Assembly: GCA_037142555.1 (NCBI GenBank)
Contig: JBAXAJ010000001.1
Span: forward strand, 14,835-78,834
DNA length: 64,000 nucleotides
Source of the DNA: Candidatus Shapirobacteria bacterium
GTDB taxonomy: Bacteria > Patescibacteriota > Microgenomatia > UBA12405
Direction: 5' to 3'
In this document: positions 13,900 through 42,626 of the stretch, piece after piece
How positions within the stretch are numbered: the stretch's first letter is position 1
Layout of the letters: every line of letters begins with the position of its first letter
The notes under the pieces: model-generated
What the model saw: the letters and a program-made list of their open reading frames with translations, nothing else
Databases searched by the model: none
Told to the model about the DNA's origin: nothing
Position numbers and translations under genes: made by a program

Positions 13900-13947
13900 A
13901 CACCCATTATTAGTTTTTTAAATTAATTTATTAATTTTTATAAAAAT

Positions 13948-26206: not shown

Positions 26207-26545
26207 TTATTTTACCATTTTACTATTAGCTTTTTTGATTGCTTTTTTAGTATTTTTCTTAGCGACTTTCTTAACTGTTTTCTTTTTAGTGTCAACTACC
26301 TTAGCTAAACCAGACTTAGCTGATCTAGAAAATTTAGCTTTTAATCTAGAAACCTTGTTAGGATGATAAATATTATTTTTAATTGCTTTATCTAAAACAG
26401 AATAAACATCTTTCAAAGCACTTTCAGTTGGTTTTGCTGAAAACTTTTTAAGGATTGCTTTAAGCTTAATTTTAAACGAAACATTCACCTTATTATTTTT
26501 TAAGGCTTTTCTTAGTGATTTTTTTGCGGATTGACTGATTGGCAT
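26207..26545 (-). CDS. rpsT: 30S ribosomal protein S20 with a Lys-rich C-terminal extension
   Basis: MPISQSAKKSLRKALKNNKVN... pattern of S20. The track ORF begins 3 codons earlier (MLIM). Confidence 0.7.
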   Translation of the reverse strand: MPISQSAKKSLRKALKNNKVNVSFKIKLKAILKKFSAKPTESALKDVYSVLDKAIKNNIYHPNKVSRLKAKFSRSAKSGLAKVVDTKKKTVKKVAKKNTKKAIKKANSKMVK

Positions 26546-26604
26546 GATAAGCATTTTAACTTATATCCTAACTATTTACAATAATTTATTATAAAATCAT
26601 AATC

Positions 26605-28227
26605 ATGAGCTCTTTTCTTCTCGAAAAAATAAAAAATTTTACCCAAAGAAAGCAGAGTACCATCCTCTCAGCTTCGCTAGTTTTAGCGGTAACTTTTGGG
26701 ATTTCTGCTCTTCTAGGCTTTTTAAGAAGCCGATTTTTATACGCTCACTTTTTTAATTGTTGTGTTGCCGATCTTGATGTTTATAATGCTGCTTTTCGTC
26801 TTCCTGATCTAATTTTCAAACTTTTAGTCACTGGTGCTCTCTCAGCTTCTTTCATTCCAGTCTATTCTTCTTATCTTCATAAAAACAAAAAAACTGCTGA
26901 CAGAATGGCTTCAAGTGTCATTAATCTTCTTTTAATCATTTTTTCTGTTGCTTCAATCATCGTCATAATTTTTGCTCACCCACTTTCCCAATTTATTGCC
27001 CATGGTTTCACCCCATCACAAGTTGATTTAATGGCTAATTTAACCAGAATTCTTTTAATAGCCCAAATATTTTTCCTAGTTAGTAACTTTTTAACCGGGA
27101 TTCTTCAAGTTAATCAAATATTTATAGTTTCAGCCATTTCACCTATTGTTTACAATATTTTTATAATTCTTGGTATTTTCACTCTAGCTCCAATTTTTGG
27201 AATCTATGGAGTTGTCTATGGTGCAGTAGTTGGTGCCTTTTTCCATTTAGCTATTCAAATTCCATCTATTCGTCGTCAGGGATTTAAATTTTCCTTCATT
27301 ATTAAAACAAAACTAAAAGGAGTTAGAGAAGTTTTCAAATTAATGGTTCCTCGAAGTTTAGCCCTAGGACTAGGTGAAATTGAAAATACTGTCACTCTAT
27401 TTTTTGCCACCACTCTTGCCGCTGGGTCTCTTTCTTTACTTAATCTAGCTGTCCAATTTATGTATTTGCCAAGTCGTATTTTTGGCACCACTATTGGACA
27501 AGCATCTTTACCAATTTTATCGAGTAATATCGCTAAAAACGAACTAGAATCTTTCAAAAAAACTGTCAGTAAAATTATTCTTCAAAGTCTTTATATTGCT
27601 CTTCCTATAACTGTTTTAATTCTAGTCAATCGTCTAGCTATTGTTCGTATCCTTTTTGGTTCTAAAGAATTTCCTTGGGCTGCTACCTTATTAACCGCCA
27701 AAATTTTAGCTTATTTAACTCCAGCCATCGCTTGTCAGGCAGTAATTCAAATTCTAATTCGTGCTTTCTATGCTCTTCATAACACTAAAACTCCATTCAA
27801 AATTTCCTTTATATCTCTTTTTGCGACTGTTGCCACCAGCTATTACTTCATAAATTTCACTAATCTAGGAGTTGTTAGTTTAGCCATTAGTGCTTCAATA
27901 GGTAATTTAGTCCAAATGTTTGGTCTTCTATATTTATTTATTAAAACCGTCCATGGTTTTGACTGGGCCCAAATGTTCAGTAAATTTAATCGAATTTTTC
28001 TTTCTACTTTAATTATGGGTTTTGTTTCTTGGCTAAGCATCAGATTTTTTGATCTTTTTATCCTAGATACCACCAAAACTATTTATCTTATGATTCTTTT
28101 TATTCTTTCCAGTTTAATCGGAATCATAACCTACATTGCCTCATCAAAGCTTCTAAATGTTGACGAATATAAAGATTATTTAAAGTACGGTGTTAAGATA
28201 AAAAACTTTTTCAACAAAAAGAAATAA
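26605..28227 (+). CDS. murJ: Lipid II flippase MurJ (MviN)
   Basis: 540 aa with ~14 TM helices. AFRLPDLIFKLLVTGALSASFIPVYS motif. Confidence 0.85.
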   Translation: MSSFLLEKIKNFTQRKQSTILSASLVLAVTFGISALLGFLRSRFLYAHFFNCCVADLDVYNAAFRLPDLIFKLLVTGALSASFIPVYSSYLHKNKKTADRMASSVINLLLIIFSVASIIVIIFAHPLSQFIAHGFTPSQVDLMANLTRILLIAQIFFLVSNFLTGILQVNQIFIVSAISPIVYNIFIILGIFTLAPIFGIYGVVYGAVVGAFFHLAIQIPSIRRQGFKFSFIIKTKLKGVREVFKLMVPRSLALGLGEIENTVTLFFATTLAAGSLSLLNLAVQFMYLPSRIFGTTIGQASLPILSSNIAKNELESFKKTVSKIILQSLYIALPITVLILVNRLAIVRILFGSKEFPWAATLLTAKILAYLTPAIACQAVIQILIRAFYALHNTKTPFKISFISLFATVATSYYFINFTNLGVVSLAISASIGNLVQMFGLLYLFIKTVHGFDWAQMFSKFNRIFLSTLIMGFVSWLSIRFFDLFILDTTKTIYLMILFILSSLIGIITYIASSKLLNVDEYKDYLKYGVKIKNFFNKKK

Positions 28228-28260: not shown

Positions 28261-28291
28261 GATAGTCATATATACTGAATGTATGACTATC
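28261..28291. repeat. Perfect 10-bp inverted repeat GATAGTCATA-N11-TATGACTATC overlapping the start codon of the downstream gene
   Basis: 28261-28270 and 28282-28291 are exact reverse complements. The right arm contains the ATG at 28283. Candidate operator or start-sequestering hairpin. Confidence 0.5.
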
Positions 28292-28855
28292 AAAAAAGAG
28301 GTCTCTCTTTTGCCGGAATCAGAGAATCCTAATTCACTCAATTCCAGAGTAATCAAATGGCTCACGACTGTGGGTCGAGTAGTCATCATTTTTACCGAAC
28401 TAATCGTTGTCACTGCTTTTGCTTCTCGTTTTTGGTTAGACAGAAGAAATGCCGATTTATCTGAAATTATTCGTCAACAACAAGCAATTTTAAACACTAC
28501 TAAAGATTTTGAAAATCAATATTCTTTTCTTCAACAGAAACTAAAAATTATTAGAGATTTTTACAGCAATGACCCTGCTTATAACACTAAAATTACTTCT
28601 CTAATTTCCAGCACTCCAGATAACATTGTCTATGACAATTTATCTCTTTCTAAAGATGAAACTTTAAATAAAACCGTTGCCTCTATTTCTTTGACAGCTT
28701 ACAAAGAAGATTCCATCGTTGATTTCATAACTAATTTAATGCTTAATCCTGATATCCAAACCGTTAATATTAATAAAATTGAAAAAAAAGCTCAAGAAAA
28801 TAAATATTCAATCAATATTAGTTTAGTGTTCAAAACACCTACTCCAAAGACATGA
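28283..28855 (+). CDS. PilN-like type IV pilus / fimbrial assembly protein (tentative)
   Basis: 190 aa. N-terminal EVSLLPESEN resembles the PilN INLLP motif. It is followed by a single TM helix and an extracytoplasmic domain. Confidence 0.45.
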   Translation: MTIKKEVSLLPESENPNSLNSRVIKWLTTVGRVVIIFTELIVVTAFASRFWLDRRNADLSEIIRQQQAILNTTKDFENQYSFLQQKLKIIRDFYSNDPAYNTKITSLISSTPDNIVYDNLSLSKDETLNKTVASISLTAYKEDSIVDFITNLMLNPDIQTVNINKIEKKAQENKYSINISLVFKTPTPKT

Positions 28856-29487
28856 TCGAATTAAATTCATTCATCCAGATTCAGCAAATCTACAAATACG
28901 TCAGAAAACAAAGAGAAAACCAAAAGTTTTTAAAATATATTGAAATTGCTGCCACTTTTATTTTAATTTCTGTTTTCCTATTTCTTGCGATTAAACCGAC
29001 TGCCACTACAATTTTTTCACTTTTAGGAGACATCAAATCAAAAGAGCTACAAACTAAACAAATGAAAGCAAAAATTGTCAGCATTGTTGCCGCTCAAGAT
29101 TTATATTCTCAAGTCGAAGAAAAATATGATGTGATTGAATCAAGTCTTCCAGACAAACCAAAATATTATCAATCAGCTCTAAATTTTTCTTCTCTTTCTC
29201 AAAAATCAAACACTTCTCTTGACCAGGTAAACTTTAATTTAAGCACTGATGATAATAAAAAATTATCAACTAACATTGACAGTTATTCAGTCAACATAAT
29301 TAGTCAAAGCAACTATAATTCTGCTCTAGAGTTTATTAAAAATATTCTAAGCAACAGAAGACTAGTTGATCTAAAAACTATTCAATTATCAAAACCAGAT
29401 GACAAAATAAGCACTTCTTCAGGTAATCTTAAGCTAAACATTACTGCCAAATTATTTTATTTAAAAGATCAAAATGAAAAGAAATAA
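28852..29487 (+). CDS. PilO-like assembly protein (tentative)
   Basis: 211 aa. Short cytoplasmic N-terminus, one TM helix (IAATFILISVFLFLAI), a coiled-coil and a C-terminal domain. 4-nt overlap with the upstream gene. Confidence 0.4.
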   Translation: MIELNSFIQIQQIYKYVRKQRENQKFLKYIEIAATFILISVFLFLAIKPTATTIFSLLGDIKSKELQTKQMKAKIVSIVAAQDLYSQVEEKYDVIESSLPDKPKYYQSALNFSSLSQKSNTSLDQVNFNLSTDDNKKLSTNIDSYSVNIISQSNYNSALEFIKNILSNRRLVDLKTIQLSKPDDKISTSSGNLKLNITAKLFYLKDQNEKK

Positions 29488-29734
29488 TTTTTCCCTATAT
29501 TTTATATTTATTGCTTTCTTTTCTTTCTTAGCTATTTTTATATCAATTGTCCAAAATAGTTATAAAAATTTAGTTAAACCAGTCGATAAAATTAAAAGTG
29601 AAAAAATAGAACCCCTTAATCTTAATTTAGACACTGAAATTATTTCTCAGATAGAATCCAGAGAGGAAATTTTTGTTGCTCCAACTCCAGAACCAACAGT
29701 CGAACCATTATTAGAAGAAGTTGTCTCACCATGA
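29474..29734 (+). CDS. Small single-pass membrane protein with a Pro/Glu-rich C-terminus
   Basis: 86 aa. One TM helix, then APTPEPTVEPLLEE. Translationally coupled on both sides. Confidence 0.35.
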   Translation: MKRNNFSLYFIFIAFFSFLAIFISIVQNSYKNLVKPVDKIKSEKIEPLNLNLDTEIISQIESREEIFVAPTPEPTVEPLLEEVVSP

Positions 29735-31074
29735 AAAAAGAAAAAAGAATACCAACTATTCTAGGTCTATTTTTACTTTTAGGGAGTATTCTTAGTGGAG
29801 TAGTTTTAAGTAACCAAAAAACTAGCTTTAAATCTAGCGCCAGTGGTGATTGTAATCCAATAAATCCTCAAGTGACTAACATCACCAATACTTCTTTTAA
29901 TGTTTCTTTTATAACTACAGCTAATTGTTTATCTAACATCAACATTGATAATAAAACGATTTCTGATCTTAGATTTATAAATACTGGTCGAAAAGAAAGT
30001 GCCACTAAAGTTCATTATTTTGAAGTTAATAACCTTAAAGAAGACACTAATTATCAATTTTCTTTAATAAATAACGGTCAAAAATTTGAGAGTCAAAACT
30101 ACAAAGGTCAAACCGCTAGAAAACCATCTAATTCTGTTCCAACTTCAAATTTAGCTTGGGGCCGAGTTTTTACTCCAGATCTCAAACCAGCAACTGACGC
30201 AATCGTTTATTTAAACACTGTTGGAGCTTCTCCACTTTCTGCTGTTGTCACTTCAAAAGGTTATTGGAACATTTCTCTTGCTACCAGTTTTAATGAAGCT
30301 AAAAATAATTGGTTCACTCCATCATCAGCCCAAAATGAGGATTTCATTGTTCTTTCTACTGAAAGTGATGCTACTCAAATAACTGGAAACACCTCTAACA
30401 ACAACCCAGTTCCAGACATAATTCTTGGTAAAAATGAGTTTTCTCCAAAACCAGTCACTGATTATGGAAATGAACAATCAGGTTATCTAAATTCAGTTCC
30501 TTCTTTCACCAACTCTGACAAAAGTCTAACTATTAGTAACCCTAAAGAAAATGAAGCTATTTTCACTCTAAAACCAGATTTCTTTGGTTCAGCTCCAGTT
30601 TCAGCAACTCTTGATATCCAGGTCGAATCAGAAAATGTCATTAAAGACCAGGTTAAATCTCAACCAGATGGTTCATGGAATTGGTCTCCACCTAAATCTC
30701 TAGTTCCAGGTGAACACACTATCACTATTACTGCTCTAAACCCAAAAACCAATATTCTAGAAAAAATTACTCGAAAATTTATTGTTGTTGCTGCTGATAA
30801 TAGTAAACCAGCTTTCAGTGCTTCTCAATCTGCTAAGATAACTACCATTCCAACTCCTACAATCACTATGGTTCCAACCATAATCCCAACAACAGCTCCA
30901 ACTCTAGTGCCAACTCTAAAAGCGACTCCAACTATAGAAGAAGAAATTCCGACTTTAAAACCAACAAAAATAAGCACCGCTTCATCTATGCCAGCCACTG
31001 GAGTTGGTTTCCCAACTTTCATTTTGATTGGATTCTCGGCTATCCTGCTGGTTATTTCATATTTTGTATTATAA
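29731..31074 (+). CDS. Cell-surface protein: signal peptide, Fn3-like and Ig/CarbopepD-like domains, Thr/Pro-rich stalk and a C-terminal sorting-signal-like anchor
   Basis: N-terminal signal/TM helix. The C-terminus has a PT-rich linker, then SMPATG followed by a hydrophobic helix (VGFPTFILIGFSAILLVISYFVL), which is LPxTG-like or PGF-CTERM-like. Confidence 0.55.
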   Translation: MKKEKRIPTILGLFLLLGSILSGVVLSNQKTSFKSSASGDCNPINPQVTNITNTSFNVSFITTANCLSNINIDNKTISDLRFINTGRKESATKVHYFEVNNLKEDTNYQFSLINNGQKFESQNYKGQTARKPSNSVPTSNLAWGRVFTPDLKPATDAIVYLNTVGASPLSAVVTSKGYWNISLATSFNEAKNNWFTPSSAQNEDFIVLSTESDATQITGNTSNNNPVPDIILGKNEFSPKPVTDYGNEQSGYLNSVPSFTNSDKSLTISNPKENEAIFTLKPDFFGSAPVSATLDIQVESENVIKDQVKSQPDGSWNWSPPKSLVPGEHTITITALNPKTNILEKITRKFIVVAADNSKPAFSASQSAKITTIPTPTITMVPTIIPTTAPTLVPTLKATPTIEEEIPTLKPTKISTASSMPATGVGFPTFILIGFSAILLVISYFVL

Positions 31075-31080: not shown

Positions 31081-32013
31081 GTGATAAAAATGAGTAAAAA
31101 AATTAAGAGTTACATCCAATCTTTGCGTCCTGTTCAATGGATTAAAAATTTAAATCTATTTGCAGCCGCAATTTTAAACGGTCAATTAACTAATTTTGAA
31201 GTTTTTTCCAAAAGCATTTTTGCTTTCATAGTTTTTTGTCTACTTTCTTCCGCTTCTTATTTAATTAATGACTTAATTGACATTAATAAAGATCGACTCC
31301 ATCCAACTAAAAAGAACAGACCTCTTGCTCATGGTGACATTTCTGAATCAAGTGCAGTTTTTCTAGCCATAACTCTAATTTTCATTGGCCTATCACTATC
31401 AATTTTCATTAATTTTGGCTTCTTTCTTATTTCCATATTATTTATAGTTCTTCAGCTAACCTATTCTTTCCTACTTAAAAAGAAAGCCATTCTCGACATT
31501 ATAACTATTGCTGCCTCATTTATTTTAAGAGCTTATGCCGGTGAAATCGCCACTGGTTACCATCTTCCAGTTTGGATAATGTTAACAGTTATCTTTTTAT
31601 CTCTATTCATTGCTAGTGGTAAAAGAAGAAGTGAACTTTTCAACACTGGTGTCACCACTCGCAGTGCTCTTAAAGGCTATCGTAAAAGCTTACTAAGTTT
31701 TTATACCACCATGTTCGCTGTTTGTACTCTAATCACCTACGCCATGTTTACTTTCTTTGAAGAGTCAGTCACTTTCGCTGGATCTGGTTTTTTACATCAA
31801 TTTATTATAGATAATTTTCCTAATGCTATAAATCGAAAATGGTATATGGTCACTCTTCTCCCAGTGATTTTTGGAATAATGCGTTATGGTCAAGTTATTT
31901 TTGAAATGCAAGAAGGTGAGAGACCTGAGAGGGTTGTTTCTACTGACATTCCACTATTGTTTTCAGTTCTAATTTGGGGCTTAATGATGATAACTATCAT
32001 TTATGTCATCTAA
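31081..32013 (+). CDS. UbiA-family prenyl-phosphate phosphoribosyltransferase, decaprenyl-phosphate 5-phosphoribosyltransferase (DPPR synthase)-like
   Basis: N-terminal LRPVQWIKNLNLFAA, which resembles the RPxQWxKN start of DPPR synthases (Rv3806c type). Asp-rich NDLIDINKDRLHPTKKNRPLA. ~8 TM helices. Confidence 0.65.
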   Translation: MIKMSKKIKSYIQSLRPVQWIKNLNLFAAAILNGQLTNFEVFSKSIFAFIVFCLLSSASYLINDLIDINKDRLHPTKKNRPLAHGDISESSAVFLAITLIFIGLSLSIFINFGFFLISILFIVLQLTYSFLLKKKAILDIITIAASFILRAYAGEIATGYHLPVWIMLTVIFLSLFIASGKRRSELFNTGVTTRSALKGYRKSLLSFYTTMFAVCTLITYAMFTFFEESVTFAGSGFLHQFIIDNFPNAINRKWYMVTLLPVIFGIMRYGQVIFEMQEGERPERVVSTDIPLLFSVLIWGLMMITIIYVI

Positions 32014-33508
32014 AATTTTCAATCTAAAAGTAATCACTTTCAGTCTTCTCGTTTTTCTAATAATTTTCACTCGTTTTATAAAATTAGATTGGGGGAATTC
32101 CTTCTTTTTTAATCCTGATGAGAACAACATGGCTTCTTCCATTTTCCAAATGACTTCTTCTAATTTAAATCCCAATTTTTTTGCCTATGGCCAATTTCCT
32201 TTATATTTAACTTTTTTTACTACTCCAAAACATGATTTTCAAAACATTATTTTAACTCTTCGTTTTTGGTCAGCCACTTTTTCTTGTCTTTCTATTTTAT
32301 TTTTATATTTAATTTCCAAAAATATTTTTAAAGACATTTTTTCTAGACTAGCTTTTATTATTTTATTAATTTTTAATCCAGGTCTAATTCAACTTTCTCA
32401 TTTTGGGACTACTGAATCAATTTTGATATTTGTTTTTATTTTAAATATTTATCTGTCTCAAAAATTTTTAAAAAATAGAAAAATTATTTATATAATTTTA
32501 GCTGCCGTAGTCAGTGGGATAGGTCTAGCTTCTAAAATATCAGCTCTGATTTTAACTGTTCCAATATTTTTAACTTTATTATTTACTTTAATTAAAAATA
32601 AAAAAATAATAAATTTTTTATTAAATACAGTTATATTTGTTGCTTTAACTTTATTTGTTATAACTCTTTTTTCACCATTTAATTTTTTAAACAGTGGGGA
32701 ATTCATTTCTTCAATGAATTATGAAATTTCTGTTGCCACTGGAAACATTAAAGTTTTTTATACTAATCAATTTTTAAATTCTCTCCCATATATTTTCCAA
32801 ATTAAAAATATATTCCCATATACTAATGGGATTTTTGTTTTCATTTTCTCTGGACTTGGTTTAATTTATTTTATTAAAAATAAAAATTATAAAGAATTAA
32901 AGTGGCTTTTAATTTTAATTCCATGTTTAATTTATTTTCTTTATAACGGTCAACTCTATACAAAATGGACTCGTTTTATGTCACCAATTTTTTTCCTTTT
33001 CCCACTTTTAACTGTTTATTTTATTAATCAATTTAAAACTAAATTTATAAAATATTTATTAGTTTTTATTTCTATAATCCCTGGGGTTGTTTTTCTTAAT
33101 CTATATTTCCAACCAGACATCAGGTTAACTGCTTCTAATTGGATTAATAAAAATATTTCTCAAGATTCAAAGATATTAAGTGAAAGTGGCAATGTCATAA
33201 ATATACCTCTAAAAAATAATAATCTTCAAGTTAATAATTTTGATTTTTATAAAAGTGAAAATATAAATAATTTATCAACAGAAATAAATAATAGTAATTA
33301 TATTTTTGTGCCTTCTCGTCGTGTTTTTAAAAATAATTTTCCAGAAACTAAAAAATATTATCAAGATTTGTTTTCCGGTTCTCTAGGCTTTTCCAAAATC
33401 CAAGAATTCAAAACAAACATTGATTTTTTATTAAATTCAGAAAATGCTGAAGAAACTTGGAGTGTTTTCGATCATCCAACTATTAGAATTTTTAAAAAAA
33501 ATGTTTAA
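32003..33508 (+). CDS. GT-C fold membrane glycosyltransferase (GT39/GT83 PMT/ArnT-like)
   Basis: Loop-1 pattern NPDENNMASSIF...GQFPLYLTFF...TLRFWSATFSCLSILFLYLISK. Polytopic with a C-terminal soluble domain. Confidence 0.6.
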   Translation: MSSKIFNLKVITFSLLVFLIIFTRFIKLDWGNSFFFNPDENNMASSIFQMTSSNLNPNFFAYGQFPLYLTFFTTPKHDFQNIILTLRFWSATFSCLSILFLYLISKNIFKDIFSRLAFIILLIFNPGLIQLSHFGTTESILIFVFILNIYLSQKFLKNRKIIYIILAAVVSGIGLASKISALILTVPIFLTLLFTLIKNKKIINFLLNTVIFVALTLFVITLFSPFNFLNSGEFISSMNYEISVATGNIKVFYTNQFLNSLPYIFQIKNIFPYTNGIFVFIFSGLGLIYFIKNKNYKELKWLLILIPCLIYFLYNGQLYTKWTRFMSPIFFLFPLLTVYFINQFKTKFIKYLLVFISIIPGVVFLNLYFQPDIRLTASNWINKNISQDSKILSESGNVINIPLKNNNLQVNNFDFYKSENINNLSTEINNSNYIFVPSRRVFKNNFPETKKYYQDLFSGSLGFSKIQEFKTNIDFLLNSENAEETWSVFDHPTIRIFKKNV

Positions 33509-35231
33509 GAAATTTTGGGACATTAATAAAGAAAAATTTTTACTTCTGTTATTTTTAGTGACAGCCTTCAGTTTGAGGATTTTTAATATTAATTGGGATC
33601 AAGGTCAGCATCTCCACCCAGACGAAAGGTTCATGACCATGGTCTCTTCAGACATCAGATTGCCTCAAAATATTATTCAATATTTTGATACCAACACTTC
33701 ATCTCTAAACCCCACTAACAAAAAATATGACTTTTATGTTTATGGGACAGTTCCTCTTATTGTGACTCGTTTTGTTGCTCAAGTTCTTAATATGACAGAC
33801 TATAATAATATTTTTATAGTCGGTCGAGTCTTGTCTGCAATTTTTGATACCTTAATTATTTTTATTCTCTACAAGATTGGTAAACTTTTAAAACTACAAA
33901 AACGAATCATTTTTATTTCTCTATTTTTCTATTCTTTCGCAATTCTCCCAATTCAACTTTCACACTTTTTCACAGTAGACACTTTCACTGTCTTTTTTTC
34001 TACCCTTAGTGTCTATCTTTTCCTAAGCTTTTTAGAAAAAAGAAAATGGTGGAGGCTAGCTCTTTGTGGTCTAATTTTTGGAATAGCCCTAGCCAGCAAA
34101 ATTTCTATAATTATTACTTTGCCACTATTTTTAATTTATTTAATAATTATTAATTTAAAGAATTTTAGAAAAATACTTTTATATGGATCAATATTTTTAC
34201 TATCAATATTTTTATCTTTCAGAATTTTCCAACCATATGCTTTCAATGGTGTAGTCAATTTTTCTCCAACTTTCATTAAATCAACTTCTATTGCTCACCA
34301 AATGGTCACTGGGGAATATAAATATCCACCAAATATCCAATGGCAAAACACAATTCCAATTATTAATCCATTAATAGACATTTTTATTTTTGCTCTAGGG
34401 CCGATAATTACTCTTTTGAGTTTTTATGGATTTTATATCGCGTTTTTTAAATTTAAATCTAAGAAAAAGTTTCTAGCTTTATTCATAATTCTTTTTTGTG
34501 ATTTTGTTTTTTTCTACCAAGGAATTCAACTAGCTAAATACCTAAGATACTTCTATCCAATTTTTCCATTTTTAGTTTTGTTTGCTGCAATTGGATTTAA
34601 CGCTTTAATAAAATTTAAAAAAATCCAATTAATTTTATTAATTTTGATTGTTCTAAATACTCTATTTTTTATTAATATTTATCTTCAAACCAATTCTCGA
34701 ATTTCTGCTTCTAATTGGATTTGTGAAAATTTTAAAAAAGGGTCAACAATTACCAGTGAGACTTGGGACGATTCTTTGCCTTTAAATTTAAACTCTGGAT
34801 GTAACTCAATAAACTATAAATCTCTGCCTTTAGATCTATATGCTTCTGATAAACCTCAAAAATGGCAGAAACTAGATCAACAATTTAAAGATGCTAATTA
34901 TCTAATTTTATCTTCAAATCGCCTCTGGGCTTCAATCCCTAATTCATCTCAACAATATCCAATAACTGCTCAATTTTATAAAGATTTATTTGACAATAAA
35001 CTAGCTTTTTCTAAAATTAAAACTTTTTATTCTTATCCAGGTCTAAGTCTTCCAATCAACGGTTGTTTTTTAATTGGTCTAAAAAACTATCCTTCTAATC
35101 AAAATAATAGTTCATTTTTTGAATTTGATAAAAATTGTCAAAATCCAGGTTTCTATTTTCGTGATGACATTTCTCAAGAGTCATTCACTGTTTATGATCA
35201 TCCTCAAGTTATAATTTTCAGTCGTAATTAA
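33501..35231 (+). CDS. GT-C fold membrane glycosyltransferase-like protein
   Basis: HPDERFMTMV...GTVPLIVTRF...GRVLSAIFDTLIIFILYKIG. ~12 TM helices and a C-terminal domain. The start ATG at 33501 overlaps the upstream stop (ATGTTTAA). The track ORF from 33444 is an extension. Confidence 0.55.
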   Translation: MFKKFWDINKEKFLLLLFLVTAFSLRIFNINWDQGQHLHPDERFMTMVSSDIRLPQNIIQYFDTNTSSLNPTNKKYDFYVYGTVPLIVTRFVAQVLNMTDYNNIFIVGRVLSAIFDTLIIFILYKIGKLLKLQKRIIFISLFFYSFAILPIQLSHFFTVDTFTVFFSTLSVYLFLSFLEKRKWWRLALCGLIFGIALASKISIIITLPLFLIYLIIINLKNFRKILLYGSIFLLSIFLSFRIFQPYAFNGVVNFSPTFIKSTSIAHQMVTGEYKYPPNIQWQNTIPIINPLIDIFIFALGPIITLLSFYGFYIAFFKFKSKKKFLALFIILFCDFVFFYQGIQLAKYLRYFYPIFPFLVLFAAIGFNALIKFKKIQLILLILIVLNTLFFINIYLQTNSRISASNWICENFKKGSTITSETWDDSLPLNLNSGCNSINYKSLPLDLYASDKPQKWQKLDQQFKDANYLILSSNRLWASIPNSSQQYPITAQFYKDLFDNKLAFSKIKTFYSYPGLSLPINGCFLIGLKNYPSNQNNSSFFEFDKNCQNPGFYFRDDISQESFTVYDHPQVIIFSRN

Positions 35232-35265
35232 TTAATTTGGCTAAATAATTGTTACAATATTTAAA

Positions 35266-35844
35266 ATGTTAGCTCACTTAAAAAAAACTTTTCTCTTTTG
35301 GCAACCACGCTTTGATTTTTTAAAATGGCTTGAATCAACCAAGGCAGGTCAATATGTAATGATTTTTTTGAACTATATTATTTGGTTCTTTTTTATTTTT
35401 ATTTCTTTTATTTTAGTTCATAAAAACAGCAACATTTTTTGGTCACTTTTAGTTATTACTGTAATAGCCGAACTCATTGAAAGATATATCAAAACCAATT
35501 TTTTTTGGTGTCGTCCAATGTTCATTAAAAAAGATGAAGTCCCAAAAGGTTTAGTAAAAAGTTGGTACAAAACAGGCAGTTTTCCTTCTGGTCACACCAT
35601 GAAATCTGCTTATTTTCTTTTATTTTTAATTCAGAATCAAGTTTTTTCTCCGACTGTTTTCTTAATTATTGTAGTTCCATTATTATTTTTTAGAGTCTTA
35701 GTTGGTTTCCATTATCCAATTGATATTTTAGGCGGTATTTTAATTGGTTTTATTCTTTGGTTTTTTATTAAAGATATAGTTTTCCCTGATTTCATGGTTA
35801 ATTCTATTAAGGTAATTTTTGATTATATTTATTCAATTTTTTAG
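35266..35844 (+). CDS. PAP2-superfamily lipid phosphate phosphatase
   Basis: KxxxxxxRP (KTNFFWCRPMF), PSGH (SFPSGHTM) and a downstream HxxxD-region (FHYPIDILGG). 6 TM helices. Confidence 0.7.
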   Translation: MLAHLKKTFLFWQPRFDFLKWLESTKAGQYVMIFLNYIIWFFFIFISFILVHKNSNIFWSLLVITVIAELIERYIKTNFFWCRPMFIKKDEVPKGLVKSWYKTGSFPSGHTMKSAYFLLFLIQNQVFSPTVFLIIVVPLLFFRVLVGFHYPIDILGGILIGFILWFFIKDIVFPDFMVNSIKVIFDYIYSIF

Positions 35845-35846
35845 AA

Positions 35847-37901
35847 ATGTTTTCCGATTTAAAGTTCATCATTTTTTGGTGGTTAATTATATTTCTATTA
35901 GGAACTATTTCTTTACCTCTAATTTTTGCTTTGTTTAAAAAATTTTGGGACAAAGGATACATTTTTTCTAAGATAATTTCCATATCACTAATAACTTATT
36001 TAATTTTTATTTTAGGGGTAATTAAACTTTTACCTTTCACTAATCTTTCTCTATTTATCATAATTCTATTTTTAATATTAATTAATGTTTTTTACTTTAT
36101 TAAATTTAAAAAGTTAGCCGAATTTCTAGAAGTTATCAAATCAAAATATAAAGTATTTATTTTTCAAGAATTATTATTTTTAGTTATTTTAGTCAGTTGG
36201 TCTCTAGTTCGTGGCTTTAACCCAGACATTGAAGGTCTAGAAAAATTTATGGATTGGGGATTCATAAATTCAGCTCTAAGGAGTACTTACATGCCGCCAA
36301 TTGATATGTGGTTTTCTGGATCTCCAATAAATTATTATTATTTTGGTCATCTAATTTTTGCTGTTTTAACAAAACTTTCTTCAATCACTTCTGCCATAAC
36401 TTACAATCTTTCTATTGCCACAGTTTGTGCCCTGACTTTTGTTAGTGCTTTTTCTCTTTCTTCAAATTTAGTCTATATTTTTTCTAAAAAAACTTCCAAA
36501 CTAAAAACAATAATTTTTTGTGGCCTAATTTCCGCTCTGCTTTTAACTTTTGGCGGGAACCTTCACCCACTTTATAAAGCTATCACCAAACCAGAACCTC
36601 TTCCTAAATTTGTTTCAACTTATTGGTATCCAGACGCCACTCGTTTTATCGGTTTTGACCCTGATACTCAAGACAAAACTATTCATGAATTCCCAAGTTA
36701 TAGTTTTGTGGTCGCTGATCTTCATGGTCATATGAACGACATCCCTGTAATTTTATTTTTTTGCGCCATGATTTTTTCTCTAAGTCTTTCTATTTTTAAG
36801 AAAATTTTTAATTGGAAATTAATCATTAGTTCAGGTCTAGTTCTATCAATTGCCTACATGACCAATGCTTGGGATTTTGCTATTTATGGGATTCTATTCG
36901 CTATTTTTATTTTCATTTCGAATCTTTCTAAAACTAATTTTTTAGAAGCTTTCAATAAAACTGTTTTAAATGGTCTTCTGGTAATAATTTTTTGGTATCT
37001 CTTTTCACTCCCTTTTTCTCTTAACTTTACACCCATGGCTCAAGGCCTTCGTTTCTCAGATGTCCACACGCCTTTCTATCAATTATCTATTTTATATGGT
37101 GGTTTTTGGTTAATTTGTCTACCTTTCCTTTTATATTTAATTTATTCAATAGTTAAAAAACTAAAAATTAAAAACTCAGATTTTTTTGTTTTAAGTTTAA
37201 TAGTCACAGCTACTATTCTAGTTATCATTCCAGAAATTTTCTACATTAAAGACATTTACATAAATGAATATCGTCGAGCTAACACTATGTTCAAGTTAGT
37301 TTATGAGGCTTTCATTATGTATTCAATTTCGGCTGGATATATTTTATTCCGACTGACTCGATCAAAGAATTTAATTTTTCCTAATCTCTATAAATTAATC
37401 TTTTTCCTTATTTTTATAGTTCACATGAGCTATCCATATTTTTCTATTAAATCTTTTTATACTTTTAAATCTTATAAAGGTCTATGGGGTCTAAACTATT
37501 TGAAAGAATCATATCCAGACAATTTAAAAGCTATCAATTGGATTAATCAAAATATTAAAGGGCAACCAGTTATGTTAGAAGCAACAGGTGATAGTTACAC
37601 CACTTTTAATCAGATATCTGTTGCCACAGGTCTGCCAACCATAGAAGGCTGGTTAGTCCATGAATGGTTGTGGCGTGGTGGTTATGATAAACCTGGTGCT
37701 CGCCAAGAAGAAGTCAAAAAAGTTTATGAAGACGAAAATTTAGATGAAGTCAAAACTATTCTTCAAAAACATAAAGTTGAATATATCTTTGTCGGTGCCA
37801 AAGAACATGAAAAATACCCAAATTTAGACGATAAAAGATTTCAAAAAATTGGTGGCGAAATTATCTTTCAATCAAGTAATACTAAAATCTATAAAATTTA
37901 A
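35847..37901 (+). CDS. YYY-domain membrane protein (Chlor_Arch_YYY / DUF2298), putative GT-C-like glycosyltransferase
   Basis: 684 aa. Many TM helices. SPINYYYFGHLIFAVL motif. C-terminal ~150-aa soluble domain. Confidence 0.5.
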   Translation: MFSDLKFIIFWWLIIFLLGTISLPLIFALFKKFWDKGYIFSKIISISLITYLIFILGVIKLLPFTNLSLFIIILFLILINVFYFIKFKKLAEFLEVIKSKYKVFIFQELLFLVILVSWSLVRGFNPDIEGLEKFMDWGFINSALRSTYMPPIDMWFSGSPINYYYFGHLIFAVLTKLSSITSAITYNLSIATVCALTFVSAFSLSSNLVYIFSKKTSKLKTIIFCGLISALLLTFGGNLHPLYKAITKPEPLPKFVSTYWYPDATRFIGFDPDTQDKTIHEFPSYSFVVADLHGHMNDIPVILFFCAMIFSLSLSIFKKIFNWKLIISSGLVLSIAYMTNAWDFAIYGILFAIFIFISNLSKTNFLEAFNKTVLNGLLVIIFWYLFSLPFSLNFTPMAQGLRFSDVHTPFYQLSILYGGFWLICLPFLLYLIYSIVKKLKIKNSDFFVLSLIVTATILVIIPEIFYIKDIYINEYRRANTMFKLVYEAFIMYSISAGYILFRLTRSKNLIFPNLYKLIFFLIFIVHMSYPYFSIKSFYTFKSYKGLWGLNYLKESYPDNLKAINWINQNIKGQPVMLEATGDSYTTFNQISVATGLPTIEGWLVHEWLWRGGYDKPGARQEEVKKVYEDENLDEVKTILQKHKVEYIFVGAKEHEKYPNLDDKRFQKIGGEIIFQSSNTKIYKI

Positions 37902-37919: not shown

Positions 37920-39824
37920 ATGACGAATATTCTAGAAGGACTAAACCCGCAACAACTTGAGGCCGTGACCTACACTGGCTCACCACTCCTACTATTAGCC
38001 GGAGCTGGTTCTGGAAAAACTCGAGTCTTAACTCATCGAGCGGCATATTTTATTGAAAAAAAATTAGCCAAACCTTCTGAAATTCTATTACTGACTTTTA
38101 CTAACAAAGCCGCTGAGGAAATGAAGAAACGAATGCAAAAATTATTATCAAATGTACAGGCAATTAATGAATCGCCCCTCCAAAAAAATAATATTTTTGC
38201 TGGGACTTTTCATTCTTTTTGTTGTCGAGTTTTAAGAGCCGATGGTCAAAATATTGGCGTTTCCCCTAATTTTGCAATTTATGACTCCAACGATCAGGAA
38301 AACATGGTTAAAAGAATTTTAATTGATATGGGCTTAACAGCTAAAGAATTTAAACCATCAAGTTTGCTCTACTACATTGAAGGAGCCAAAAATACTTTTC
38401 AAACTCCAAAAGACATGCAACTTCAAAGCCATGGTTTTTGGCAAGAATATGCCGCCAAAGTTTATGCTAATTATCAAAAAAAATTAGCTGAATTTCATGC
38501 TCTAGATTTCAATGATCTTCTTTTTAAAACAGTTGAACTTTTCATGGAGAATCCAGAAGTTTTAGCTAAATATCAAGAAATCTATAAATTCATTATGGTT
38601 GATGAGTATCAAGACACTAACCAAATTCAATATCTTCTAACCAAATTATTAGCCAATAAATATAAACAAATAACTGCTGTCGGTGATGCTGCTCAAGCTA
38701 TTTATGGTTGGCGAGGAGCTGATTATCGTAATTTAATTAGTTTCACTACTGATTTCAAAAATGTAAAAGTAATTAATCTTGAAGAAAACTATCGTTCCAC
38801 CAACATTATTCTAGATGCAGCTAATTCAATTATTTCTAAAAATAATTCTCATCCAGTTTTAAAACTATTCACTAAAAAAGTTTCTGAAGATAAAATAAAA
38901 ATTTTTGAGGCCGAATCAGAAGTTTCAGAAGCCGATTATGTCACCGATAAAATAAAATTTATTAATGATAATTTAAGAATTCCTTTAAGAAATATAGCCG
39001 TTCTTTATAGGATGAACGCTCAATCTCGAGTTATTGAAGAAGCCTTTTTAAGACAATCATTGCCATATGTTCTACTAGGGGGAACTCGTTTTTATGAAAG
39101 AGCTGAAATCAAAGATATTCTAGCCATGCTTCGTTTCACCAATGACCAAGCCGATAAATTATCAGAAGAACGAGTTGGTAAAGCAATCGGTAAGAGGCGG
39201 CTAGTCACTTTTAAAGAACATCTCAATAATCTCGATATTAAAGACATGACTTCTCTAGAAATTTTAGAATCATTAGTCGTTAATTCTGATTATTTAAAGA
39301 AATTCGATCCTAAAGATGAAGAAGACCAAAAACGAATTGAAAACATTAAAGAGTTAAAATCAGTTGCCACTGCTTATCCAAAGCTAAGTGATTTTCTAGA
39401 AAATATTGCTCTCGTTCAACAAGAATATTCTCAACAAGAAAAAAATAAAAAGAAAGAAAATAAAGATGGAGTCAGATTAATGACTCTTCATGGAGCTAAA
39501 GGTCTAGAATTTGAAGTTGTCTTTTTAGTCGGTTTTGAAGAGGGAATTTTGCCTCATTCTCGAAGTCTAATTGAAGAATCTGAAATTGAAGAAGAGCGTC
39601 GTCTTTGTTATGTTGGTGTCACTCGAGCCAAAGATTATCTTCACATTTCTTATGCCAATAAACGCCTATTTTTTGGTAAAAGCAGTTTAAATGAGCCAAG
39701 CCGATTTTTAGCAGACATCCCATCAGAATTAGTTGAATTCGAAGAATCCATAACCAGAGACTACCGCCGACCAAAGAAATCAAAAGACGATGATGATTTT
39801 ATTTATGATTCAGATATATATTAA
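37920..39824 (+). CDS. pcrA: ATP-dependent DNA helicase PcrA/UvrD (SF1)
   Basis: GAGSGKT Walker A. DEYQDTN. motif III VGDAAQAIYGWRGA. YRS. GLEF. VGVTRA. Confidence 0.85.
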   Translation: MTNILEGLNPQQLEAVTYTGSPLLLLAGAGSGKTRVLTHRAAYFIEKKLAKPSEILLLTFTNKAAEEMKKRMQKLLSNVQAINESPLQKNNIFAGTFHSFCCRVLRADGQNIGVSPNFAIYDSNDQENMVKRILIDMGLTAKEFKPSSLLYYIEGAKNTFQTPKDMQLQSHGFWQEYAAKVYANYQKKLAEFHALDFNDLLFKTVELFMENPEVLAKYQEIYKFIMVDEYQDTNQIQYLLTKLLANKYKQITAVGDAAQAIYGWRGADYRNLISFTTDFKNVKVINLEENYRSTNIILDAANSIISKNNSHPVLKLFTKKVSEDKIKIFEAESEVSEADYVTDKIKFINDNLRIPLRNIAVLYRMNAQSRVIEEAFLRQSLPYVLLGGTRFYERAEIKDILAMLRFTNDQADKLSEERVGKAIGKRRLVTFKEHLNNLDIKDMTSLEILESLVVNSDYLKKFDPKDEEDQKRIENIKELKSVATAYPKLSDFLENIALVQQEYSQQEKNKKKENKDGVRLMTLHGAKGLEFEVVFLVGFEEGILPHSRSLIEESEIEEERRLCYVGVTRAKDYLHISYANKRLFFGKSSLNEPSRFLADIPSELVEFEESITRDYRRPKKSKDDDDFIYDSDIY

Positions 39825-39842
39825 TCTTGTTAAAATACAACT

Positions 39843-40847
39843 ATGATTACTCGCATTCTATACATCGAAGAAAAAGACCAATACAACGCTCTAGTTAAAC
39901 ATCCACTTCAAACATGGGAATGGGGTGACTTCCAAATAACTCAAGGGCACAAGGTCTATCGTCTCGGAGTTTTTGAAGAAAATAAAATGATTTCTGTTTA
40001 TTCTGTTTCTTTTCACAAAGTTCCTAAAGTCAACTATTCTATCGGAACTCTTTTTAGAGGCCCAAAAGTTGATGAAGAAATGATTACAAACATTAAAAAA
40101 ATAGCCCAAGACGAAAATGCTATTTTTGTTAAATTCGAACCAAATGTTTTTTATCCTAGTAATATGCAATTTCCTGGGATGAAAGTTTCCCCTAAAGTTG
40201 CTTTTTATCCATATAACTTCATTGTCGATTTAACTAAAAGTGAAAATAAACTTCTAGAAGATATGCATCCAAAAACTCGTTATAACATTCGCATTGCCAA
40301 TCGTTATGGAGTTGAAATTAAAGAACAAACTGATGACGAAGGTTTTGAAATTTATTTAAAACTTCTTTTTGACACTACTAAAAGACAAGGCTTCTATCTC
40401 CACACTGAAAACTATCACCGTACTCTTTGGAAAACTTTAAAAGACACTGGAATGGTGAAAATTATGTTGGCTTCTTACCAAGGCAAGGTCTTAAGCTCTT
40501 TTATGCTTTTTAAATTAAAGAAACAACTTTATTACCCTTTTGGAGCTTCACTTGATACCAACAGGGAAGTTATGGCTCCAACTCTTCTGATGTGGGAATC
40601 AATTAAATTAGGCCAAAAATTAAAATGTAAAAGTTTTGACATGTGGGGTTGTCTTGGTCCTAATGCTAAGGAAAGTGAACAAGGCTATGGATTCCATCGT
40701 TTTAAACAAGGATTTAATGGTGAATTAGTCCAATATGTCGGCACCTATGATTTTGTTATTAATGACAATTTATACAAAACCTACAAATTAGTTGATAAAT
40801 ATCGTTGGAAATTCCTCCGTCTCAAAGCCAAACTTTTGAGAAAATAA
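39843..40847 (+). CDS. FemAB-family aminoacyl-tRNA-dependent peptidoglycan peptide-bridge transferase (tentative)
   Basis: 334 aa. TWEWGDF, KTRYNIRIANRYGV and YPFGAS motifs reminiscent of FemX/FemAB. Confidence 0.55.
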   Translation: MITRILYIEEKDQYNALVKHPLQTWEWGDFQITQGHKVYRLGVFEENKMISVYSVSFHKVPKVNYSIGTLFRGPKVDEEMITNIKKIAQDENAIFVKFEPNVFYPSNMQFPGMKVSPKVAFYPYNFIVDLTKSENKLLEDMHPKTRYNIRIANRYGVEIKEQTDDEGFEIYLKLLFDTTKRQGFYLHTENYHRTLWKTLKDTGMVKIMLASYQGKVLSSFMLFKLKKQLYYPFGASLDTNREVMAPTLLMWESIKLGQKLKCKSFDMWGCLGPNAKESEQGYGFHRFKQGFNGELVQYVGTYDFVINDNLYKTYKLVDKYRWKFLRLKAKLLRK

Positions 40848-40860
40848 GGTAAAATACACT

Positions 40861-41160
40861 ATGTCTTCAAACAAAATTACTAGAGAAGAATTGGATCACA
40901 TTTCCAAGTTGGCTCGAATTGAATTAAGCGATCAAGAAAAAACTACTTTTTTGCCACAACTCGAATCTATTCTAGAATATCTAGACATTTTAAATCAAGT
41001 CAAAACTGACAACATCACTCCAACTTATCAAGTTAATGACCAAAAGAATGTTTTGAGACAAGATATTGTTAAAGAATCTTTTTCTCAAAAAGAGGCTCTT
41101 TCAACCGCTCCAAAAACTCAAGACGCTTATTTTGTTGTCCCAGGGACTATCAAAAAATAA
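40861..41160 (+). CDS. gatC: Asp/Glu-tRNA amidotransferase subunit C
   Basis: 99 aa. ELDHISKLARIELSDQEK. Precedes gatA and gatB. Confidence 0.8.
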   Translation: MSSNKITREELDHISKLARIELSDQEKTTFLPQLESILEYLDILNQVKTDNITPTYQVNDQKNVLRQDIVKESFSQKEALSTAPKTQDAYFVVPGTIKK

Positions 41161-41162
41161 CT

Positions 41163-42626
41163 ATGGATTTAAAATCTTTAACTATCAAACAAATCCAAGA
41201 ATTGCTTTTTTCTAAAAAAATAACTGCCACCCAAATCGTCAATTTTTATTTAAATCGGATTTCCGAAATTGATCCAAAAATAAAAGCCTTCATCACCATC
41301 ACCGACAAAGTAGCCTTAAAACAGGCAGAAATTCTAGATGCCAAAATCAAAAAAGGTGAATCAGTTGGAAAACTAGCTGGAGCTGTCATGGCAGTTAAAG
41401 ACATTTTTTTAACCAAAGACATTCAAACTACTTCTAGTTCCCAAGTTTTAAATGGCTACATTCCTCAATATTCTTCAACTATCTACCAAAAACTAATTGA
41501 CCAAGACGCCATCATCATTGGAAAAACAAACACCGATCCTTTTGCTTTTGGTGGTTCAACTGAAAATTCTGGTTATTTTACAACCAAGAACCCTTGGAAT
41601 CTCTCAAAAGTTCCAGGTGGTTCTTCTGGTGGTTCAGCTGCCGCTGTGGCTGCTGATCTATGTCAATTTGCCCTTGGCACCGACACTGGTGGTTCAATTC
41701 GCCAGCCAGCTTCTATGTGTGGAGTCAGTGGTTTAAAAACAACTTATGGTCTAAATTCTCGTTTTGGAATCACCGCCATGGCTTCATCTTTTGATTGCCC
41801 TGGAGTCTTTGCAAAAAACATTGAAGATCTAGCTCTAGTGACTCAAATCACTGCCGGTCTTGACGAAAAAGACGCCACCACAGTGGATCTTTCAGTCCCA
41901 GATTATTCTAAGCTTCTAGAAAGTGTTGATTTAAAAGGTCTAAAAATTGGTCTACCAAAAGAATATTTTTCTGATCCAATAAACCCAGAAGTTAAAGAAA
42001 AAGTCATGACAGCGGCTAAGGAATTTGAAAAGCGGGGGGCCATTCTAGTAGATATTTCTCTTCCTAGCACTAATCTTGGAATTGCAGTTTACTATGTCTT
42101 AGTTCCATCAGAAATTTCTGCCAACATGGCTCGTTATGATGGCATTCGTTTTGGTCAAAACACCACTGACAATAAAGACATAACTTCTTATTATATGAAC
42201 ACTCGTGGAAAATATATGGAAGCCGAAGTTAAACGACGAATCATAATTGGAACTTATGCTCTATCTTCTGGTTATTATGATGCTTACTACACTAAAGCTT
42301 CAAAAGTCCGAACTTTAATTAAAAAAGAATTCACCGAAGCTCTAAAAAATGTCGATATAATTCTAGCTCCAGTTTCTCCAACTACAGCTTGGGACATTGG
42401 TGCCAAAAGTAATGACCCACTTCAAATGTATTTAAGTGACGCTTTCACTGTTTGTGTCAATGTTGCTGGAATTCCATCAGTTGCTCTTCCTTGTGCTTTT
42501 GATTCTCAAAAACTTCCAATTGATTTTCAATTAATCGGCAACTTTTTTGAAGAATCAAAAATTCTTTCCGTCGCTCATCAATATCAACAATTTACTTCTT
42601 TCCATAAAGAGGAGCCAAAATTATGA
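41163..42626 (+). CDS. gatA: Glu-tRNA(Gln)/Asp-tRNA(Asn) amidotransferase subunit A
   Basis: Amidase signature GGSSGGSAAAVA...GTDTGGSIRQPA. Confidence 0.9.
   Translation: MDLKSLTIKQIQELLFSKKITATQIVNFYLNRISEIDPKIKAFITITDKVALKQAEILDAKIKKGESVGKLAGAVMAVKDIFLTKDIQTTSSSQVLNGYIPQYSSTIYQKLIDQDAIIIGKTNTDPFAFGGSTENSGYFTTKNPWNLSKVPGGSSGGSAAAVAADLCQFALGTDTGGSIRQPASMCGVSGLKTTYGLNSRFGITAMASSFDCPGVFAKNIEDLALVTQITAGLDEKDATTVDLSVPDYSKLLESVDLKGLKIGLPKEYFSDPINPEVKEKVMTAAKEFEKRGAILVDISLPSTNLGIAVYYVLVPSEISANMARYDGIRFGQNTTDNKDITSYYMNTRGKYMEAEVKRRIIIGTYALSSGYYDAYYTKASKVRTLIKKEFTEALKNVDIILAPVSPTTAWDIGAKSNDPLQMYLSDAFTVCVNVAGIPSVALPCAFDSQKLPIDFQLIGNFFEESKILSVAHQYQQFTSFHKEEPKL

Follow-up and report, generated by a model that had tools for sequence, protein, structure and literature searches.

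Type IV pili are regarded as key to host attachment and DNA uptake in bacteria of the Candidate Phyla Radiation (CPR), and the layout of the pilus machine in wall-bearing cells that lack an outer membrane is poorly known. In the type IVa pili of Thermus thermophilus, Pseudomonas aeruginosa and Myxococcus xanthus, the adjacent pilN and pilO genes specify bitopic proteins that each combine a transmembrane helix and a coiled coil with a ferredoxin-like ectodomain; pilM is located upstream of the pair, and the PilP lipoprotein and PilQ secretin are further products of the pilMNOPQ operons. Monoderm and CPR pili, including T4P-1 and T4P-2 of the Saccharibacteria strain TM7x and those of Streptococcus sanguinis and Clostridium perfringens, possess PilM/N/O alignment factors without an outer membrane or secretin (PMC12206443, PMC6744442), and in TM7x both pilus loci contain pilM/N/O alongside pilB and pilC (PMC12206443). 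The PilB/T, PilC, PilM, PilN, PilO and PilD families are reported to be widespread in the CPR (Méheust et al., PMC6744442). Here a 64,000-nt stretch of DNA (the window; GC content about 30%) from a metagenome-assembled genome (MAG) of Candidatus Shapirobacteria, a CPR lineage within the Microgenomates, was analyzed. As in type IVa systems, pilN and pilO are adjacent in the window and the PilN protein bears the same type of N-terminal peptide; the pair is recognized by Pfam and, through PilO, by profile comparison with PDB sequences, and PilN is recognized also by its fold. In contrast to type IVa and TM7x loci, the pair is detached from pilM, pilB, pilC and the pilin genes, neither PilP nor PilQ is encoded beside it, and two genes for unannotated envelope proteins, termed S and B here, occupy their places in a fixed operon located next to rpsT-murJ. 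The pair probably is the pilus alignment subcomplex of this lineage, with its genes set apart from those of the other machine components and joined by genes for two lineage-specific envelope partners.

The four plus-strand open reading frames (ORFs) are all present at the positions assigned by a first-pass annotation of this DNA, with successive overlaps of 4, 14 and 4 nt at the N/O, O/S and S/B junctions, respectively:

28283-28855, plus strand: pilN (N), 190 aa, bitopic PilN-family protein
28304-28315, plus strand: SLLP codons (S8-L9-L10-P11 of PilN), INLLP-type N-terminal motif
28852-29487, plus strand: pilO (O), 211 aa, bitopic PilO-family protein
29474-29734, plus strand: S, 86 aa, bitopic protein without a known family
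29731-31074, plus strand: B, 447 aa, exported surface protein
30988-31071, plus strand: C-terminal signal of B, comprising M420-P-A-T-G424, V-G-F-P428-T429 and a hydrophobic helix to L447

The NCBI entries identical to N (WCG91_00265) and B (WCG91_00280) both are annotated as 'hypothetical protein', a description that the analyses below correct.

The 190-aa protein is a genuine member of the PilN family. It matched the Pfam PilN model (PF05137) over positions 6-75 of 78 with a score of 23.0 bits compared to a gathering threshold (GA) of 22.8 bits. An AlphaFold2 (AF2) model that was built with 27 homologs and that possessed a mean predicted local distance difference test (pLDDT) value of 84 showed one long helix at residues 19-95, comprising the transmembrane segment and a coiled coil, followed by an alpha-beta-beta-alpha-beta-beta domain at residues 100-183. 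The topology therefore is that of a cytoplasmic N-terminus, a transmembrane helix at residues ~27-50, a coiled coil that extends to residue ~95 and a ferredoxin-like (alpha-beta-beta)x2 ectodomain. The best match of the model among PDB entries in Foldseek searches was PulL/GspL (5hl8) with a TM-score of 0.74, and further matches were obtained with XcpY (0.72), EpsL (0.71) and Thermus PilN (4bhq; 0.59), whereas PilO (5uvr; 0.63) ranked lower. The Foldseek probabilities for PulL, PilN, EpsL, XcpY and PilO were 0.96-1.0. Thus, the periplasmic domains of the GspL proteins PulL, EpsL and XcpY of the GspL/GspM pair of type II secretion systems are the closest structural relatives of the PilN ectodomain. 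However, GspL is fused to a PilM-like cytoplasmic domain, whereas the protein in the window spans 190 residues and, like PilN proteins, has no more than a short peptide at its N-terminus. The first-pass annotation had described a PilN-like protein with an N-terminal SLLP motif and a single transmembrane helix; both features are present, and the score above GA and the resemblance of the modeled ectodomain to PulL/GspL and Thermus PilN raise the likeness to family membership.

The PilN protein belongs to a large family. Profile searches recovered 1,091 clusters at 50% identity, full-length and of ~180-190 aa, of which 716 were at E≤1e-10. A second search that was initiated from distant members retrieved 1,819 proteins, and nearly all of the 120 that were listed carried a precomputed match to PF05137; certain distant relatives are named 'PilN domain-containing protein [Patescibacteria group bacterium]' by NCBI. 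An INLLP-type N-terminal peptide is the PilM-binding peptide in characterized PilN proteins. Residues S8-L9-L10-P11 were invariant in 27 Shapirobacteria homologs, and the canonical INLLP replaces SLLP in relatives that share 25-31% identity with the window protein. The invariance of a PilM-binding type of N-terminus speaks for a PilM partner whose gene is at another site in the genome.

The 211-aa protein similarly is a genuine PilO family member. It matched Pfam PilO (PF04350) at 26.5 bits (GA 22) over model positions 14-143 of 145, and the same model was matched individually by 13 of 19 orthologs. When the family profile was compared with PDB sequences, PilO of M. xanthus (3jc8) was found with E=1.2e-9 and that of P. 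aeruginosa (2rjz) with E=0.09. The protein is bitopic with a transmembrane helix at residues ~29-50, and hydropathy indicates a single transmembrane segment at about residues 25-59. The earlier description of this protein as PilO-like in topology therefore can be replaced by assignment to the family.

The conservation of the unit was assessed in 96 loci (1.49 Mb; about 6,200 ORFs), approximately 85 of which derive from the Shapirobacteria lineage with 47-80% PilN identity. A contig scan with the alignment of Shapirobacteria PilN proteins and family-specific patterns returned this lineage exclusively and provided the basis for the synteny analysis. The order murJ-N-O-S-B was maintained in every Shapirobacteria-lineage locus of sufficient length to show it (about 85). 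The stop/start overlaps also are kept in relatives: overlaps of 4 nt between N and O were found in 58 of 85 loci, of 14 nt between O and S in 41 of 85, and of 4 nt between S and B in 36 of 83. The four genes form one operon whose translation is coupled. Moreover, N-O-S-B recurred at 24-31% PilN identity in further loci (L088, L089/90, L092, L093 and L095/96) in which S is 65-121 aa and B is ~390-470 aa with matches to Pur_ac_phosph_N (Fn3-like), CarboxypepD_reg and Big_13. In locus L091 the contig ends directly after N-O. Locus L094 is a variant in which N-O-S is followed by murJ (minus strand), rpsT (plus strand) and then surface proteins without a full B ortholog. At least N-O-S was kept in all eight distant contexts that were sampled, as far as the contigs extend, and apart from L094 and short contigs the four genes make up a fixed set in about 90 loci. 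Thus, N-O-S-B is the conserved unit and rpsT-murJ is a persistent neighbor. The pair had been viewed as an orphan, which is misleading as the arrangement is the standard one of a large CPR family and extends across the Microgenomates, which are ultra-small bacteria. Among the public MAG records that include the locus (L010-L012, L014, L016-L018, L067 and others), many bear the title 'uncultured Gammaproteobacteria bacterium' and a single one the title 'Candidatus Methanoperedens sp.', evidently in error.

The remainder of the pilus machine probably is encoded away from this operon. A Pfam scan covered the larger ORFs of the window apart from the region 37920-44053 and several short ORFs, and motif regular expressions and a phmmer search for sortase took in every ORF with a length of 40 aa or more. 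No pilM, pilB/T, pilC, pilD, pilin/prepilin or sortase gene was found in the 64-kb window by these scans, with the ORFs of 37920-44053 being outside the Pfam scan, which bears out the earlier statement that no pilM, pilB, pilC or pilin gene is adjacent. The few kb past the right edge of the window contain housekeeping genes only (S15, PNPase, DprA-like). The pilO gene is directly downstream of pilN. A pilM gene was found neither in the window nor in any of the 96 loci, and searches of the 10 kb around the module in these loci detected no GspE-type ATPase gene, prepilin gene (GFTLIE-type) or pilM-like context. The closed Microgenomates genome Ch65 possesses a single type IV pilus locus for which PilA, minor pilins, PilD, PilB, PilT, PilC and PilM are listed, but not PilN/O, and also encodes a sortase (PMC7143001). 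The supplements of PMC7143001 and PMC6744442 contain nothing per genome on PilN, PilO or PilM. In combination with the invariant N-terminal peptide, the reports on Ch65 and the CPR suggest as the simplest reading that pilN and pilO of Microgenomates were separated from pilM, are located in their own operon and serve the pilus.

The small protein S comprises a basic N-terminus, a transmembrane helix at residues ~7-28, a short linker, a conserved extracytoplasmic segment with the pattern L-[ND]-P-x-L-[DN]-x2-[VIL][LIF]-x2-[IL]-E-x-[RK], and a variable tail. The conserved part amounts to a 65-aa core immediately after which several orthologs end. The Pro/Glu-rich tail that had been noted for the 86-aa protein is present in the window, but is not a conserved feature: tails in the family are Pro/Glu- or Pro/Thr-rich and are missing from several orthologs. 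The protein did not match any Pfam family. Wherever a locus was sufficiently long to show it, the gene was found with pilO on one side and B on the other. Identification of S as PilP was rejected because the protein has no Cys/lipobox, no HR domain and nothing beyond the 65-aa core.

Protein B is a multi-domain surface protein. The AF2 model (40 sequences; mean pLDDT 78) revealed three beta-sandwich domains at residues 41-130, 135-245 and 263-355 with pLDDT values >90, a disordered Thr/Pro stalk at residues 356-421 and a helix at each end. Matches to Pfam fn3 and Big_13 were weak, whereas the family profile matched Fn3 and SiiE BIg domains in the PDB, and Foldseek retrieved generic tandem Fn3/Ig rods with low TM-scores (contactin, SiiE, GbpA, adhesin extender and S-layer protein). 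The earlier proposal of a multi-domain protein with Fn3 thus is confirmed by profile, AF2 and Foldseek as an Fn3 domain accompanied by an Ig-like domain; NCBI names orthologs 'Ig-like domain-containing protein'. The N-terminus is basic with a hydrophobic helix at residues 7-27 and a conserved SKA/ASA-like site ~10-15 residues further on, which on a heuristic reading resembles an export signal. The median identity to the window ortholog across 70 loci was 56% for PilN, 51% for B and 41% for PilO, and the central domain of B was the most conserved at 59%. This pattern, with B ranked between PilN and PilO, is more in keeping with a component of a machine than with an adhesin that evolves fast. 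Two assignments were rejected: B is not a prepilin because a G/A-F-T-L-x-E class III signal is absent, and it is not PilQ because there was no Secretin or N0 match in Pfam and its folds are Fn3/Ig. A Pro-Thr dipeptide opens both terminal helices (P8-T9, 29752-29757; P428-T429, 31012-31017), and P8 is retained without exception, including in orthologs that share 30% identity.

The C-terminus of B resembles a sorting signal, as was noted previously, but scores below the LPXTG cut-off. The protein in the window ends in a Thr/Pro-rich stalk followed by SMPATG and a hydrophobic C-terminus without Lys or Arg, as described. A [VILM]Px[TS]G pentapeptide was found in about 51 of 76 unique orthologs in the forms IPKTG, VPVTG, VPTTG, VPKTG and MPKTG, with MPATG in the window. 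In a sub-clade of 11 orthologs, Pro is replaced by Tyr (LYx[ST]G). The most conserved element of the tail is G-x3-P at the start of the C-terminal helix, which is kept in 69 of the 76; the G-x3-P-T element is part of no known sorting model. The absence of a basic tail holds for the window protein, but is a minority state as 66 of the 76 orthologs carry Lys or Arg within the last eight residues. In searches with NCBIfam sorting models at E-values up to 10, ten tails yielded no match to PEP-CTERM, PGF-CTERM or other models and LPXTG-type models alone responded; relatives of B matched LPXTG_double with 13-14 compared to a cut-off of 48. The exosortase and archaeosortase classes were rejected on this basis. 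As in the LPXTG surface proteins of Gram-positive bacteria, an export signal, beta-sandwich domains and a wall-spanning Pro/Thr stalk precede an LPXTG-like pentapeptide and a hydrophobic helix in B, to which most orthologs add a basic tail. It differs from them in the score below the curated model, the Tyr for Pro exchange in the sub-clade, the additional G-x3-P-T and the lack of a basic tail in the window copy.

A second family of surface proteins bears on the interpretation of this tail. Approximately 25 Shapirobacteria loci, but not the window, contain an extra gene for a Cys-rich surface protein directly after B:

L067:12636-13508, L069:12642-13676, L041:12747-13970, L020:3834-5213 and ~20 more: extra Cys-rich protein genes between B and the UbiA-family gene

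The proteins are secreted, possess long PT repeats and end in GPSPTRIVLPx[SA]G-[VF][ED]FP followed by a helix (...GFLILL) without a basic tail. The family is unrelated to B, but shares the G-x3-P element and passes the cut-off of the LPXTG_anchor model (TIGR01167). Thus, LPXTG signals without a basic tail exist in the lineage. Further large PT-rich and Cys-rich surface proteins of up to 651 aa follow B in L022 (12800-16249) and L082 (12892-15263), the latter with three matches to the B model; the site that follows B seems to be a hotspot at which surface-protein genes are gained.

A single sortase gene was found near the module across the 96 loci by regular expression and phmmer searches, and none was detected in the 10 kb around the module in loci of the Shapirobacteria lineage. 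The exception is L094, in which the region 9337-14478 includes a Pfam Sortase gene (catalytic LFTC...R) that is accompanied by genes for two surface proteins with a C-terminal VPETG followed by a helix and a basic tail; a Fn3 protein with a dockerin-like C-terminus is also encoded there, close to LytR_cpsA_psr, and all of these genes are <7 kb from PilN-PilO-S and murJ-rpsT. The VPETG next to this sortase conforms to VPxTG, the dominant form in B, which supports processing of B by a sortase. The [VI]PxTG form also resembles the motifs of pilin-type sortases. Overall, sortase anchoring of B in Shapirobacteria is modestly favored.

The alternative to sortase anchoring is that the C-terminal helix of B is a permanent membrane anchor and that the [VIM]PxTG-like residues are a juxtamembrane segment which no enzyme processes. 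The tail of the window protein scored 11.9 on LPXTG_anchor compared to a cut-off of 15.9 and lacks basic residues, the Pro to Tyr exchange in 11 orthologs affects the pentapeptide itself, no sortase model requires the top-conserved G-x3-P-T, and neither the window nor the 10 kb around the module in the lineage contained a sortase gene. The pentapeptide also is unrecognizable in distant orthologs, which carry TLRPG, TPTSG or VYDSG; together with the LYxSG sub-clade and the low score of the window protein, this makes sortase processing insecure across the family. [quoted passage not shown] A permanent anchor therefore is a serious alternative that falls somewhat short of probable.

How the four proteins may act together can be outlined by comparison with characterized systems. 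PilN and PilO would heterodimerize in the membrane as the alignment subcomplex of the type IV pilus. The SLLP/INLLP peptide of PilN would dock cytoplasmic PilM encoded at a main pilus locus with pilB, pilC, pilT, pilD and the pilins, and the pair would thereby connect the extracytoplasmic side with the ATPase and platform through PilM. The bitopic protein S with its 65-aa core and B would be lineage-specific partners that are produced in step and stoichiometrically with PilN and PilO and act outside. B would be exported by Sec and held by its C-terminus, most likely on the wall, to which a sortase would link it after cutting at [VIM]PxTG, and otherwise by the terminal helix, with the three beta-sandwich domains directed outward on a possibly glycosylated Thr/Pro stalk. 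In a cell without an outer membrane or secretin, S and B may supply an outer part of the pilus that contributes to positioning, passage through the wall or S-layer, or surface contact. On this hypothesis S and B would replace PilP and PilQ of pilMNOPQ operons, a loose analogy that refers to gene position and supposed role. In its most specific form the proposal is that N-O-S-B constitutes a trans-envelope alignment complex of Microgenomates, in which S is a minimal adaptor on the PilN/PilO ectodomains and B is a stalk protein that a sortase attaches, that perhaps carries pentofuranose, and that spans the wall to designate or form the site at which the pilus crosses the wall or S-layer, replacing PilP/PilQ. 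This elaborate version is speculative and rather unlikely to hold in full. If true, it would define a kind of component not described before in pilus machines, and one that is conserved across a large part of the CPR. S and B are concrete candidates for the missing outer parts of the machine, and the locus points to a possible link of the pilus with wall anchoring by sortase and pentofuranose glycosylation.

Several observations count against the assignment of the operon to the pilus. The Pfam PilN score of the window protein is marginal (23.0 versus 22.8), the E-values of the Foldseek matches were modest at about 2e-3, and the PilN family profile identified no PilN among PDB sequences, the only hit being a designed protein with E=0.18. 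Because the profile did not reach PilN entries in the PDB, the kinship to characterized PilN proteins is remote in sequence. The absence of pilM, pilB, pilC and sortase genes refers to the 64 kb and a few kb past one edge, which is a part of the genome, and the content of the Ch65 locus is the list of its authors and is no proof that PilN/O are absent there (PMC7143001). A second pilN/pilO pair at the main pilus locus, if present, would make the pair described here paralogous. Foldseek returned no pilus-specific fold for B. Finally, the geometry is awkward as a C-terminally anchored B on a stalk of 60 residues would be far from the PilN/PilO ectodomains; B instead may act at the wall or surface and not in direct contact with PilN/PilO.

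The following neighboring genes are outside the conserved core of the operon:

26207-26554, minus strand: rpsT, context gene
26605-28227, plus strand: murJ, context gene (Pfam MurJ 4.3e-72)
31081-32013, plus strand: decaprenyl-phosphate phosphoribosyltransferase of the UbiA family (NCBIfam NF008978, 212.7 versus a cut-off of 207)
32003-33508 and 33444-35231, plus strand: two PMT_2 GT-C enzymes (Pfam matches)
35266-35844, plus strand: PAP2 phosphatase (Pfam match)
35847-37901, plus strand: DUF2298/chlor_Arch_YYY protein (TIGR03662, 482 bits)

The location of murJ upstream of pilN was recognized correctly in the first-pass annotation. In Shapirobacteria the two genes are on the same strand with a gap of typically 17 nt. 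In most of the distant lineages murJ has the opposite orientation, with rpsT between murJ and pilN. Altogether, rpsT-murJ adjoins the module in three arrangements: rpsT(-) murJ(+) pilN, murJ(-) rpsT(+) pilN, and pilN-pilO-S murJ(-) rpsT(+). These changes in orientation imply that co-transcription with murJ is not conserved. The adjacency itself has survived inversions. The rpsT-murJ pair is an ancient one in many bacteria. On the other side of the operon, the glycosylation genes follow B at gaps of 17-45 nt, and the cluster is kept downstream in Shapirobacteria and partly in distant lineages, in which the downstream genes otherwise differ (FAD oxidoreductase with PMT_2, or unknowns). The cluster at 31081-37901 together with MurJ, a MOP-family protein, resembles the three-component scheme of extracytoplasmic pentofuranosylation by polyprenyl-phosphoribose synthase, flippase and GT-C enzymes (PMC11127046). 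Similar clustering of phosphoribosyltransferase, GT-C and flippase genes with pilus-related genes is known from TfpW, which adds D-arabinofuranose to Pseudomonas pilins (bioRxiv 10.1101/2020.04.19.049825). The window differs from these pentofuranose systems in that the flippase looks like the housekeeping MurJ and that the connection to PilN/O/S/B is one of adjacency. On the same grounds of adjacency, plausible glycan acceptors are the Thr/Pro stalks that B and the extra surface-protein family carry, or else the pilins.

An alternative to the view of S and B as partners of the pilus pair is that PilN and PilO are ordinary pilus parts to which S and B are functionally unlinked, with B being a conserved wall-anchored surface protein, either adhesin or structural, that inherited gene order keeps in place in slowly rearranging genomes and that perhaps is a substrate of the neighboring glycosylation enzymes. 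The folds of B occur in generic rods of the adhesin or extender type (SiiE, GbpA and contactin Fn3 arrays), its style of leader and G-x3-P tail are shared with the unrelated Cys-rich LPxSG family, as in a local neighborhood of surface proteins, and Thr/Pro stalks are typical targets of O-glycosylation, for which GT-C enzymes follow in the cluster (PMC11127046). In L094, moreover, murJ-rpsT separates N-O-S from the nearest Fn3 protein. However, the O/S and S/B stop/start overlaps are conserved, the four-gene order holds to ~25% PilN identity while both flanks change, and B evolves at the rate of PilN/PilO, unlike a fast-evolving adhesin. The passenger status of S and B therefore is unlikely; were it correct, the locus would be an ordinary PilN/PilO pair at an unusual genomic address.

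Recruitment of PilN and PilO, with S and B, to a membrane scaffold for envelope construction (peptidoglycan export by MurJ, glycosylation by GT-C enzymes), an idea raised in the first-pass annotation, is weakened to the point of being improbable: the three rpsT-murJ arrangements, the short same-strand gap to murJ in Shapirobacteria, the phosphoribosyltransferase, GT-C, PAP2 and DUF2298 genes directly after B, the location of the module away from pilus genes in every locus examined and the precedent of PilMNO homologs in the flagellar motor cage of Campylobacterota (PMC10823254), where PilN/PilO-type proteins serve another envelope machine off pilus loci, all are compatible with it, but that cage keeps a PilM homolog while flagellar genes are lacking here and PilM is not adjacent, the PilM-binding type of N-terminus is invariant and PilM is the only known partner of this peptide, most of the distant lineages have murJ on the opposite strand, the glycosylation genes are swapped for others in L093 and L095 with N-O-S-B intact, and so old a synteny as rpsT-murJ says little on function. 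The other idea in the first-pass annotation, a non-canonical module for surface anchoring or for pilus-like assembly, may or may not apply to the four genes.

A scan of the AT-rich locus for promoters and terminators yielded no interpretable signal. Elsewhere in the window, a 445-aa protein encoded at 5747-7084 fuses signal peptidase I (Peptidase_S26) with a CAP (cysteine-rich secretory protein) domain, which is an unusual combination. The GC skew of the window is negative over ~1-52 kb, although genes at 11-50 kb mostly are on the plus strand. The minimum of the cumulative GC skew is near 52 kb, and a paper on a closed Microgenomates genome reports an unusual disparity of strand composition in the group.

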